In this document: positions 27,001 to 30,000 of the stretch, in pieces
Position numbering within the stretch: position 1 is the first letter of the stretch
Layout: each line of letters starts with the position of its first letter
IMG/VR virus record: IMGVR_UViG_646564533_000015
Location: 1-57,176 of that record
Reading direction: 5' to 3' (one strand)
DNA: 57,176 nucleotides
Origin: a virus
Taxonomy: Duplodnaviria > Heunggongvirae > Uroviricota > Caudoviricetes
Program-made: the position numbers

Positions 27001-30000
27001 AACCATGGCGAGGTTTTCCATCAGCAGGTGAGCCCCGCTTTCCACCATTTCAGGAGGATGCTCAAAAATCACCGGCAGAAAGTGCGGATCATGAATTTTG
27101 CCGTCACGGACATCCCGGGCATACTGCAGTTTCTGTCTGAACACCCCGGCGGGCGGTTCATTCGACTGGGTGGTCGTATACACCACAAACCCTTCCGGAC
27201 GGGAGGCAAGCCCGCCGATGGCTTCACGTAGCATGTCTTCCGCCTTGTACTGCTTGCCAAACAGCCACAGTTCATCAATCAGTGTCCCCACGGACTTGAT
27301 ACCGGACACCGTATTCGGATCGGCTGCCACCACCTTCAGGGTGGTGTCCGTCACCCGATGGGTGATGGTCCGGATATGTGTCTGCACCTGACAGAGGTCA
27401 TCCAGATCATCGTCCCGTCGTACCATATCCCTGGCAGGGTTGAAGGCGTTAGCCGCCACCTCCACGGTCGGGGCCAGAATGGTGTAGCCCGCCGCCTGCC
27501 GCCAGTTCAGTAACAGCGCCGTCATCATGATCCCCGCAGCCAGCGTGGACTTACTGTTTTTCTTGGGGATAAGGATAAACACTTCCTTGATATGGCGAAC
27601 ACCGGTCTGCGCATCGTAGGAGCCAAACAGGGCCGCCACCAGGTCAAACACCCACGGTGCACAGGACTCCCCGAATGTCGGGCTACCCGGTGCATCCACA
27701 ATCCGCAGTTGTTTAAAAATCGCCAGTGCATGTGCAGCCTGGTCCGGATAAATCGGAGCCGGAATAATCGACAGCCCCTTTTTCAGGCGCTCTGCCCAGT
27801 CCGGGCAGGCCGTGCTCCACACAGGTATCATCCGTTGCCCTCATTATCATTATTCACCACCAGGCGGGGTGGTGGTGGCACCGCAAAACGGTTAGCCGCT
27901 TTTTTCGCCGCGTCACCTTTTGCCGATTTTTTACCGGCATCCCCTTTTTTATGGTGCGTGAACTGCGCCAGCTTATAAGCCGCATCCAGCGCCAGCCTGG
28001 GGTCGGTATTAATGTTCTCCACCAGAAGACGCCCCATCGCTTTCACCGGATCGGGAAGACCATCCTCCATATATTCAATACCAGGAGACATCACCGCGGA
28101 CGGTGGCATCTCCGGATTGTTTTCGTCCGGCTGTGGTATTGCAGCCGCCTCACGGCGACGGGGTTTATCCTCCTGCTCTGATTTTTTCTGCCGGTAAACA
28201 GGAACCTCATCCACCTCCACCGTCTCGCATTGTTTACGGGCTATAAACGCAAGCACCTCCGGATCTTTTGCCAGCTGCGAGCCTTTAACCCTGGCGGTCT
28301 TCGCCGAATAACCAGCGGCAATGGCTGACGCTGTTTTGTTTTTCCCGGACATGAGCGCCAGCGCAAATTTTCGTTTTTGCGTTGTCAGCACAGCCTCCTC
28401 CCGGGTCCAGAACGCACTCAGCCGGGTATGGTTCAGCCCATTTTTCCCGGCGTCTCATGCCGCAAATGTTAACTGCTGCCTGGTTAACATTTGCTGAAAA
28501 AGCCAGTTAACATTTTTTCCGCACAACAAACTGAATAATAAAGATAAAAACCGCAAAAATGCCCGGACAGCCAGTTAACATGTTAACTGCCCTGAAACGG
28601 GAATTTTTTCTCTGCGTGAGAGGGGGCGCGGTGTCCGGGGCGATCGTTTTTTCACCGGAAGATCCCCCCCCCCGAGTCTGGTCATAGTCCGATGATATCG
28701 TCCACCCTGCCACGACCTCCGGACACCTCCGGCAACGTCGGATCCGGCATACCACTCGCCGTTTCACCGACTGACTTCTGGCGATGGCATTCGGTACAGA
28801 GCGTCCAGAGATTCGTCTCCTCATTACCACCACCGAACTGAAGTGCAATGCGGTGATCAAGTTCACTGTCACAGAGGTCAACCACACGCCCACAGAGACA
28901 ACACTGTCCGGCGTCCCTCAGCCAGATACGACGTTTGAGGGAAACCCGGGCACTGCCACTCACACGACGCTGTTCCCCCTTAAGGACATTTATCTGCCGG
29001 GTGTTCAGAGTTTTGACTCGGCCCGGTAACGTACGAAGCACAGCCATGTAAAATCCTCGCCATATAGCTTGTCACCAGAGGAAAGAAAATGTCATCGAAA
29101 AACCGGACCCGCAGAACCACAACCCGCAATATCCGTTTCCCCAATCACATGATTGAACAGATCTATATCGCCCTTGAACATAAAGGTTCCGGTAACTTTT
29201 CGGCCTGGGTTATTGAAGCCTGCAGGAGAAGGCTGGCAACAGATGCAACGCATCTGCGCCCGGCCAGCATGACAAATAACGAGAAATGAACGTTCGGTTA
29301 CAGGAGCAGGTAGCCACTGTCCTCCAACAATATTTCATCTTCATATCCGGCGGAACAAGATTTACCCTGCCGGGATGTACAAAATAACAACAGAGTGATA
29401 ATTAATTTCTGTTAAAAATAATCAGGGCGCAGAAGGACTAAAGATAAATGTTTTCTTCATACCTTTACGCGGCTTGCCCTTCTCAAATCGCCATTTTGCC
29501 ATCGCCTTTACAACCTGGCCATCAAACAGATGGTGCGGTTCTGAACGGAAAAACTCAATTCTGGTAACAGTACCGTCAACACCGACATCAAACTTCACAT
29601 CAACACGCCCCTTAATGTGATTAGCCGCTGCATATTTCGGATATTGTGGTAACGCCTTAACCAACTGTCGTGGCATATCAGTTTTATGTTGCGAACACCC
29701 CATAACCAGAGAGGACAACAAAATAATTAAGGGAAGATTTCTTTTCATGTTCATTCCCGGCACAGATAAGAATAAGTCTTATTCTAACAATGAAGCTTTA
29801 CCGATCATCAATCCTCTGCTTAATGGAAACGACCATTATCCGACTTAAATCACAAATCGGACACACATGAAATAACAGAGTTTCCGATGTAACACATCGT
29901 CCGGCTTCTTCCACCATCGCACCGGACGGGCAACCATGAGGGGACAACGCCCCGCTCCGTTAACGCGGTAAACCCCGGTGTGTATCGTTTTTGATTATTC

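Follow-up and report, generated by a model that had tools for sequence, protein, structure and literature searches.

Background

Cor of phages φ80, N15 and HK022 and Llp of phage T5 are small outer-membrane lipoproteins that act from the periplasm on a TonB-dependent transporter (bioRxiv 10.64898/2026.03.26.714494; PMC11436027), and a 2024 review of superinfection exclusion gives Cor alone for TonB-dependent receptors (PMC11436027). A route through TonB itself is named in the title of Howard, Herrmann, Stratilo and Braun (2001), according to which the periplasmic domain of TonB made in vivo inhibits transport by FecA and FhuA (J Bacteriol 183:5885; listed in PMC6042079). The present study deals with one gene of IMGVR_UViG_646564533_000015, a lambdoid prophage with its late genes on the minus strand; the whole stretch of 57,176 nt is referred to as the window, and all feature coordinates are given on it. 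The gene (29422..29748, minus strand, stop codon included) encodes a protein of 108 amino acids (aa), hereafter the TonB_C protein, in which a lipoprotein signal is joined to the C-terminal domain (CTD) of TonB.

Our analysis suggests, tentatively and a little short of probability, that the TonB_C protein serves as a dominant-negative decoy of TonB, tethered to the outer membrane, and shields the lysogen from bacteriocins and phages that depend on TonB, a function that we infer. On this reading its family would belong with the phage and plasmid lipoproteins that disable an entry route at the outer membrane. Cor and Llp inhibit FhuA specifically and allosterically and guard against phages of their own kind; the TonB_C protein, by contrast, would be generic for partners with a TonB box, and the phages that carry a gene of this type appear to use LamB-type receptors.

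TonB C-terminal domain and predicted fold

An earlier note on this DNA had read a TonB C-terminal-like domain in the open reading frame (ORF). The profile search that had been set beforehand as the test able to refute this assignment matched Pfam PF03544 (TonB_C) at 1.3e-13, with 51.7 bits against a cut-off of 24.6; TIGR01352 was matched at 6.6e-13, with 48.8 bits against a cut-off of 27.1. Comparison by phmmer with the solved TonB CTDs of E. coli and Salmonella gave a gapless alignment of 79 aa at E ~1e-16, covering residues 26-104 (29437..29673, minus strand). Adding 127 to a residue number of the query gives its TonB counterpart, and the domain thus spans E. coli TonB residues 153-231. Identity to enterobacterial TonB CTDs is 40-46%, and both the YP motif (Y36-P37) and the β3 edge strand (residues 94-103) are intact.

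Structure prediction agrees with the profile search. An AlphaFold2 (AF2) model built from eight close sequences reached a predicted local distance difference test score (pLDDT) of only 58 and was replaced by one from a 22-sequence alignment, with a pLDDT of 86.5 overall and above 95 over residues 31-100. Foldseek superposed this model on TonB bound to BtuB (2GSK_B) and to FhuA (2GRX_C) with a root-mean-square deviation of 1.1 Å and a template modelling score of 0.92. The significant matches in the Protein Data Bank (PDB; E <= 0.001) were exclusively C-terminal domains of TonB or TonB homologues, and the dimeric isolated E. coli TonB CTDs 1U07 and 1IHR were among the best of them. The domain is therefore predicted, on the evidence of the model, to adopt the receptor-bound conformation of TonB with the β3 edge strand intact. 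In the FhuA complex, it is the β3 strand of TonB that pairs with the TonB box (PMC11658791). At the position equivalent to TonB Q160 the window protein has leucine in place of glutamine, and the classic Q160L allele of TonB re-establishes coupling when the TonB box of FhuA or colicin M is mutated (PMC11658791); the leucine is suggestive only as a pointer to TonB-box binding.

The TonB_C protein shares with E. coli TonB (P02929; 1U07, 2GSK, 2GRX) the αββαβ fold and the conserved Gly, Phe and Trp core residues; it differs in ending four residues earlier and in having a lipoprotein signal as its N-terminus. The full-length TonB equivalogs NF008080-NF008084 scored 44-76 bits against cut-offs of 265-448, and these matches were confined to the last ~85 model positions (~152-240). 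Neither the uncleaved N-terminal transmembrane anchor that serves ExbB/ExbD nor the proline-rich, periplasm-spanning spacer of TonB is present in the 108 aa. Because it has neither the anchor nor the proline-rich rod, the protein cannot be energised by ExbB/ExbD; it could bind the partners of TonB but cannot transduce energy to them.

No homology to Cor or Llp was detected: PHROG and Pfam gave TonB_C only, and the PDB matches were TonB CTDs only. Llp-like folds are said to be common in the BFVD set of viral structures (bioRxiv 10.64898/2026.03.26.714494), and no match to the AF2 model was found in that set at E <= 0.001. The window itself contains no cor-like or bor-like lipoprotein ORF.

Lipoprotein signal and anchoring

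The protein begins with MKRNLPLIILLSSLVMGC followed by SQHKTDMPRQLVKALPQYP…, and MKRNLPLIILLSSLVMGC fits the PROSITE-type lipobox pattern, defined here as [LVI][ASTVIM][GAS]C, with VMGC at residues 16-19. The signal peptide MKRNLPLIILLSSLVMG and the putatively lipidated Cys19 occupy 29692..29748 (minus strand); use of an in-frame ATG further upstream, at 29754, would add MN. The 18-residue signal peptide, ending at the lipobox cysteine, is the only hydrophobic segment of the protein, and a linker of ~8 residues (SQHKTDM) leads from Cys19 to the domain. Within the 57-kb window, this is the sole convincing lipobox ORF besides Rz1, the one further hit being a false one in the membrane helix of Rz. 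Cys19 is kept in subfamilies a and b of the E. coli gene and in the relatives from Salmonella, Klebsiella, Raoultella and Erwinia. The LVMGC lipobox that the earlier note had reported is thus borne out by both pattern and conservation.

The residue at +2 is serine in the window protein and threonine or alanine in the relatives. Lipoproteins without aspartic acid at +2 are sorted by the Lol system to the outer membrane. Since the +2 residue is serine and not aspartic acid, sorting to the outer membrane is predicted from the sequence, and the TonB_C protein would be an outer-membrane-tethered lipoprotein. The 'free' periplasmic TonB-CTD of the earlier note has accordingly to give way to a tethered one.

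The location bears on another way in which an isolated CTD could act, namely by poisoning TonB itself or ExbD through mixed CTD dimers or complexes, with no part for TonB boxes. CTD homodimerisation takes place in vivo within the TonB cycle. The crystallisation of isolated E. coli TonB CTDs as dimers (1U07, 1IHR) and the 40-46% identity of the window domain to enterobacterial CTDs would suit such poisoning, but an outer-membrane tether puts the domain at the transporters and not at the ExbBD complex, and the model fits best the monomeric, receptor-bound form (2GSK, 2GRX, 1.1 Å). We regard poisoning of TonB or ExbD as unlikely.

Proposed mode of action

As a decoy, the TonB_C protein would occupy the binding partners of TonB and deliver no energy to them. 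Through its lipid anchor the domain would be enriched where TonB boxes emerge, on the periplasmic side of the transporters, and productive TonB coupling would be lowered, so that a lysogen or a late-infected cell would become harder to enter for agents that exploit the Ton system. Those impeded would be bacteriocins and microcins that depend on TonB, along with phages such as T1, φ80 and H8, and the price would be a partial loss of siderophore and vitamin B12 uptake.

The closest experimental counterpart is given by the engineered fragments of Howard et al. (2001), in which the periplasmic domain of TonB was reportedly exported without its membrane anchor; the inhibition of FecA- and FhuA-mediated transport named in the title is the mechanism proposed here for the window protein. 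The TonB_C protein differs from these fragments in being a natural, selected, lipid-anchored minimal CTD carried on a phage. The constructs of Howard et al. were reportedly artificial, overproduced and soluble, many of them with the proline-rich region. Competition for TonB boxes, the mechanism put forward in the earlier note, gains indirect support from this precedent, from the predicted receptor-bound conformation, from the missing anchor and spacer, and from relatives that form operon-like pairs with colicin or pyocin immunity genes or lie on plasmids beside an analogous lipoprotein with TolA domain III. We infer an outer-membrane location, binding of TonB boxes, a protective phenotype and a promoter for the gene.

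The C-terminus of the tail protein J of the prophage is 99% identical to those of Stx-phage J proteins and 89% identical to that of phage 21 J; the receptor of phage 21 is LamB (PMC11336670). Self-exclusion through a FhuA-type receptor was rejected on this ground. Exclusion of the phage's own kind is unlikely because the J tip resembles that of the LamB-using phage 21, which itself carries the TonB_C gene; the probable beneficiaries are therefore lysogens that face heterologous TonB-dependent phages and bacteriocins. Taken as a whole, the earlier interpretation is partly supported. Its analogy with Cor and Llp would hold for a small, predicted outer-membrane lipoprotein acting at TonB-dependent transporters and fails for fold and sequence, which are unrelated; its superinfection exclusion is unlikely to be directed at the phage's own kind; and its colicin protection is favoured by relatives paired with immunity genes and qualified by Tol-type motifs in two neighbouring bacteriocins, both of which are described below.

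Conservation and distribution of the gene

The ratio of non-synonymous to synonymous substitution (dN/dS) was 0.14 when the common E. coli allele was the reference and 0.09 for subfamily b, where dS is saturated, with an overall range of 0.09-0.20. The ORF was intact in all 82 of the 82 related loci examined, and the gene is under purifying selection. These data decide against a non-functional fragment of the host tonB produced by illegitimate recombination, an idea that agrees with historic annotation, in which the gene appears as a 'partial tonB-like membrane protein encoded within prophage CP-933N'. In addition to the low dN/dS, saturated dS between subfamilies and the intact ORF, the protein has acquired a conserved lipoprotein signal and is nearer to stand-alone relatives (E 1e-23) than to enterobacterial TonB (E 1e-12). 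The fragment identity is effectively refuted by selection and conservation, and we consider it the least credible of all explanations weighed here.

Of 5426 complete E. coli genomes, 411 carry the full-length gene. Carriers include E. coli O103, O145:H28 and enteropathogenic E. coli (EPEC) strains as well as the Stx1a-converting phages JLK-2012 and Lys8385Vzw. Subfamily b has 68% protein identity to subfamily a and corresponds to gp73 of phage 21, which is annotated as 'TonB C-terminal domain protein' and placed after Rz/Rz1 and bor and before cosQ; gp73 is not mentioned in the genome announcement of phage 21. The RefSeq name of the window protein is 'TonB family protein'. The existence of the gene is not new, because it is already annotated. 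What looks new lies at the family level, namely that phages and plasmids encode stand-alone TonB_C proteins, that these are paired with immunity genes, and that lipoproteins with TolA domain III form a parallel to them.

A predicted protein of 102 aa, P0022, consists of the first ~55 residues of an endolysin fused to the last ~47 residues of TonB_C. It apparently resulted from a deletion reaching from the endolysin gene to the middle of the TonB_C gene in a decaying prophage.

Stand-alone TonB_C proteins in other genera

An exhaustive profile search found short proteins (107-133 aa) that are closer to the window protein (E 1e-23) than enterobacterial TonB is (E 1e-12). With the window protein they make up a family of Enterobacterales, whose further source genera are Salmonella, Klebsiella, Raoultella, Gibbsiella, Rahnella, Erwinia, Pantoea and Serratia; all are named 'TonB family protein'. 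At the N-terminus they have a lipobox whose +2 residue is S, T or A, or else, in Serratia and some Pantoea, a plain signal peptide, and their domains carry the motifs SEPxHLFD and KWRFEKxKP. Prophage copies, found in at least five genera (Escherichia with both subfamilies, Salmonella, Klebsiella, Rahnella and Pantoea), always lie in the slot between spanin and terminase genes, which is flanked by at least three different packaging modules. A further 96 plasmid records, mainly of Klebsiella and Pantoea, carry the gene, and one plasmid copy adjoins a Qat defence system.

Analysis of the neighbouring genes revealed a repeated pairing with bacteriocin immunity. In Serratia, 68 nt separate the TonB_C gene from a colicin-E1-type immunity gene (PF03526) downstream of it on the same strand; the two face the gene of a pore-forming colicin, and this trio occurs both in a chromosomal island and on a plasmid (locus-internal coordinates L095:6001-8510 and L099:6001-8447). 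Two Pantoea-type prophages carry the TonB_C gene in the spanin-terminase slot directly after a pyocin/colicin DNase immunity gene (PF01320) on the same strand (locus-internal coordinates L093:3278-6324 and L105:5597-6333); one of these pairs accompanies a 769-aa pyocin-S/DNase toxin, and the other consists of an orphan immunity gene and the TonB_C gene. In one further island, a colicin lies 1.7 kb from the TonB_C gene.

Parallel lipoproteins with TolA domain III

A gene annotated 'tolA' on a plasmid of Pantoea dispersa (NZ_CP045217.1 11347-11781; locus-internal L112:4348-4782), 5 kb from a TonB_C gene, encodes a 144-aa lipoprotein (…LLITAC followed by SNH) with domain III of TolA (TolAIII). 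It matches Pfam TolA (PF06519) at 5e-24 and E. coli TolAIII structures at 1e-17. Lipoproteins of this kind are present on 739 plasmid records, mostly of Klebsiella, and comparison of the two sets of records showed that at least eight Klebsiella or Pantoea plasmids hold genes for TolAIII and TonB_C lipoproteins 3-5 kb apart. The lambdoid phage mEp460_ev081 encodes a 142-aa member (LR597641.1 40533-40961; locus-internal L115:3489-3917; …IIIGC followed by TDA), placed between Q and the holin gene, downstream of Q. These proteins are annotated 'cell envelope integrity protein TolA' and cannot be genuine TolA. No TolA-type lipoprotein was found in the window.

The TolAIII lipoproteins of IncF plasmids (WP_032416767.1) and of mEp460_ev081 have a design identical to that of the TonB_C protein, a lipobox and a docking domain borne by a mobile element; the difference is that the domain is TolA (PF06519) there and TonB_C in the window. 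With both kinds of lipoprotein in existence, copies of the docking domains of both envelope import motors, in predicted tethered form, are therefore present on mobile elements. The Tol and Ton motors are the import routes of group A and group B colicins, respectively, and of several phages. It is conceivable, and to us somewhat doubtful, that mobile elements of Enterobacterales deploy a two-member set of 'hook-domain decoys', periplasmic or tethered to the outer membrane, which would give a broad, receptor-independent 'import immunity', the window gene being its TonB arm. With equal reserve, the elements involved would be lambdoid prophages, IncF plasmids and bacteriocin/immunity cassettes, and the targets would be colicins, pyocins, microcins and Ton- or Tol-dependent phages.

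Organisation of the locus

The order of genes on the minus strand is endolysin (31804..32337), an Ant-like anti-repressor gene (30964..31533; PHROG 524, 2.4e-112), the i-spanin gene Rz (30316..30810) with the o-spanin gene Rz1 embedded in it (30405..30590), an ORF of 74 aa (30095..30319), a leader region of ~350 nt and the TonB_C gene. Beyond the TonB_C gene follow a convergent plus-strand ORF (29089..29289), an HNH endonuclease gene of an HK97-type packaging module (28682..29047, minus strand), which marks the end of the moron slot, and then terS and terL. The moron-rich position after Rz that the earlier note had described is therefore confirmed as the interval between Rz/Rz1 and the packaging module, and so is its small basic ORF on the opposite strand, which encodes YlcI/YnfO (DUF3950, Pfam 9.6e-19; NCBIfam NF041551). 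YlcI was found in ~1270 E. coli records, and the TonB_C gene in just 411 of these; the two are not an obligate pair, because only this part of the ylcI records has the TonB_C gene. The same figures, 411 of the ~1270 records sharing the flanking ylcI region, describe the TonB_C gene as a moron, that is, an accessory gene that is variably present, and its slot adjoins packaging modules of differing HK97/HNH, λ Nu1/A and P27 types.

The PHROG match of the protein (PHROG 1267, 1.4e-38) carries the label 'Rz-like spanin', which would make it a lysis accessory or spanin component, as might its position as a lipoprotein gene on the late strand downstream of the lysis cassette. Rz1-type o-spanins are likewise outer-membrane lipoproteins encoded near lysis genes, but the real Rz1 of the window is the one at 30405..30590 and belongs to a complete Rz/Rz1 pair, past which the TonB_C gene lies by 570 nt and behind another ORF. 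The protein has a folded TonB domain of 80 aa and not the short proline-rich form of an o-spanin, and there are homologues on plasmids, at chromosomal sites and next to colicin genes that have no lysis genes in their surroundings. A spanin identity is effectively refuted by the prophage's own Rz/Rz1 pair, the globular domain and the homologues away from lysis genes, and we hold it to be very improbable; the label of phrog_1267 is probably an annotation error taken from gene position.

The slot also recalls Bor/Iss of λ and phage 21, which is likewise a lipoprotein moron of the region from Rz to cos; it is unrelated in sequence to the window protein and is encoded opposite to the late operon. 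The TonB_C gene sits where λ and phage 21 have bor, and the window prophage has no bor. Binding of the TonB CTD to peptidoglycan and to Lpp/OmpA has been reported. The TonB-like domain could on these grounds be a Bor- or Pal-like envelope tether, bound to peptidoglycan or to abundant outer-membrane proteins, and would then help to stabilise the envelope. Phage 21, however, carries bor as well as the TonB_C gene, so that the two are not alternatives; moreover, some members of the family are soluble and have no lipid anchor, and the link with immunity genes would be left unexplained. An envelope tether appears improbable to us.

The 74-aa ORF begins with an ATG that overlaps the stop codon of Rz (ATGA). 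It aligns to PHROG 2571 at positions 100-172 of 291, is annotated 'hypothetical' in E. coli E110019 and resembles, by this alignment, a piece of a larger family of phage proteins. It was rejected as a partner of TonB_C, being a PHROG 2571 fragment only and having no relationship to the ORF, likewise of 74 aa, that Rahnella has in this slot. The Ant-like gene interrupts the lysis cassette between endolysin and Rz, and a KilAC-type antirepressor occupies the same spot in related E. coli prophages.

Upstream region and expression

Late-strand genes of lambdoid phages are read by Q-antiterminated transcription. The TonB_C gene lies on the strand of the late operon, and Q-antiterminated late transcription should therefore read it. 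A second source of transcription may be an extended -10-like element, TGTTAGAAT (29781..29789, minus strand), which lies 32 nt upstream of the ATG and is invariant in 80+ subfamily-a loci, with a variable flank upstream of it; in subfamily b and phage 21 it is retained as TGTCAGAAT. The element is a candidate for the gene's own promoter, and its conservation suggests expression also in the lysogen.

Overlapping it is a near-perfect palindrome of 17 bp, AGAATAAGACTTATTCT, with the arms AGAATAAG-A-CTTATTCT (29769..29785), which is unique in the window (0.05 chance matches expected) and may be an operator. Subfamily a conserves the palindrome, and subfamily b lacks it. YlcI looks like a ribbon-helix-helix protein and could be its binder; the HicB-like PHROG match of YlcI is very weak (E 0.09). 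Fur regulation was rejected: the best Fur-box match, at the palindrome, has 13 of 19 positions, and 18 sites in the window are as good or better.

Further upstream, a putative mini-ORF of 39 aa that contains cysteines (MVEEAGRCVTSETLLFHVCPICDLSRIM…; 29798..29917, minus strand) aligns in frame with its counterpart in phage 21, gp72 (45 aa), and three cysteines are kept, including a CxxC. It has no PHROG match and is left uncalled by PGAP in the E. coli relatives; it may be transcribed together with the TonB_C gene as its partner. The conserved non-coding leader of ~170 nt that accompanies the gene (29918..30085, minus strand) agrees between subfamilies a and b, phage 21 included, visibly better than the coding sequence does. 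A structured or small RNA in the leader was rejected, with no Rfam match at E <= 1 over 28000-32000 and a folding z-score of 0.49.

Evidence weighing against a decoy

Several observations count against the decoy proposed here. TonB-box binding is a backbone β-augmentation and cannot be judged from sequence. The CTD N-terminus in full-length TonB points to the inner membrane, and with a tether as short as that of the window protein the receptor-bound pose might be out of reach. General inhibition of TonB would cost the cell iron and B12 uptake. Searches of the full-text literature found no functional work on stand-alone TonB_C or TolAIII proteins of phages or plasmids; PADLOC, which has no TonB_C model, gave no match for the TonB_C protein, YlcI or the 74-aa ORF; and a consensus promoter and terminator scan yielded nothing convincing for the TonB_C gene and did not call TGTTAGAAT.

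The bacteriocins next to the relatives are part of the same difficulty. One of them has the TolB box DGTGWSSE, and the pore-forming colicin of Serratia (locus-internal coordinates L095:6783-8510) has a TolA-binding domain of the colicin A type (ColA_N, residues 65-106) together with a TonB-box-like DSMTV. The colicin link is real but not cleanly one of 'group B', because these two neighbouring bacteriocins carry Tol-type import motifs, and the association is with bacteriocin immunity in general and not cleanly with TonB-dependent toxins. The DSMTV of the Serratia colicin is N-terminal, at the position where colicin A has its TolB box; judged by these motifs, this colicin may have a mixed Ton/Tol import signal.

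Finally, some chromosomal copies have no conflict genes around them (Raoultella, near yagU-like and spy-like genes; Erwinia, by araBA; and a bcs cellulose locus). Such relatives at non-mobile sites would fit a role in host physiology, in which the protein tunes down TonB-dependent nutrient uptake or receptor activity, either in the service of the lysogen's fitness or virulence or, for the chromosomal members, as a housekeeping modulator, and the O103, O145:H28 and EPEC carriers and the Stx1a-converting phages named above would fit it as well. A physiological role leaves unexplained the repeated pairing with bacteriocin immunity genes and the co-location with TolAIII lipoprotein genes on plasmids, and the upstream Fur-box match is at background level. 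It seems to us rather unlikely, if not quite as improbable as an envelope tether.

Significance

If the TonB_C protein is indeed a tethered TonB decoy, a prophage or plasmid would shut a whole import route generically, where Cor and Llp block a single receptor. This would bear on the host range of phages used in therapy and on the use of colicins and microcins, on 'Trojan-horse' siderophore antibiotics, all of which depend on TonB, and on the trade-off that a lysogen makes between iron uptake and protection. The presence of the gene in phage 21 and in the genomes of hundreds of pathogenic E. coli, those with Stx1a-converting phages among them, makes the proposal directly testable with standard strains and assays. 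The parallel lipoproteins with a TolA domain suggest that the TonB_C proteins belong to a wider, unrecognised class.

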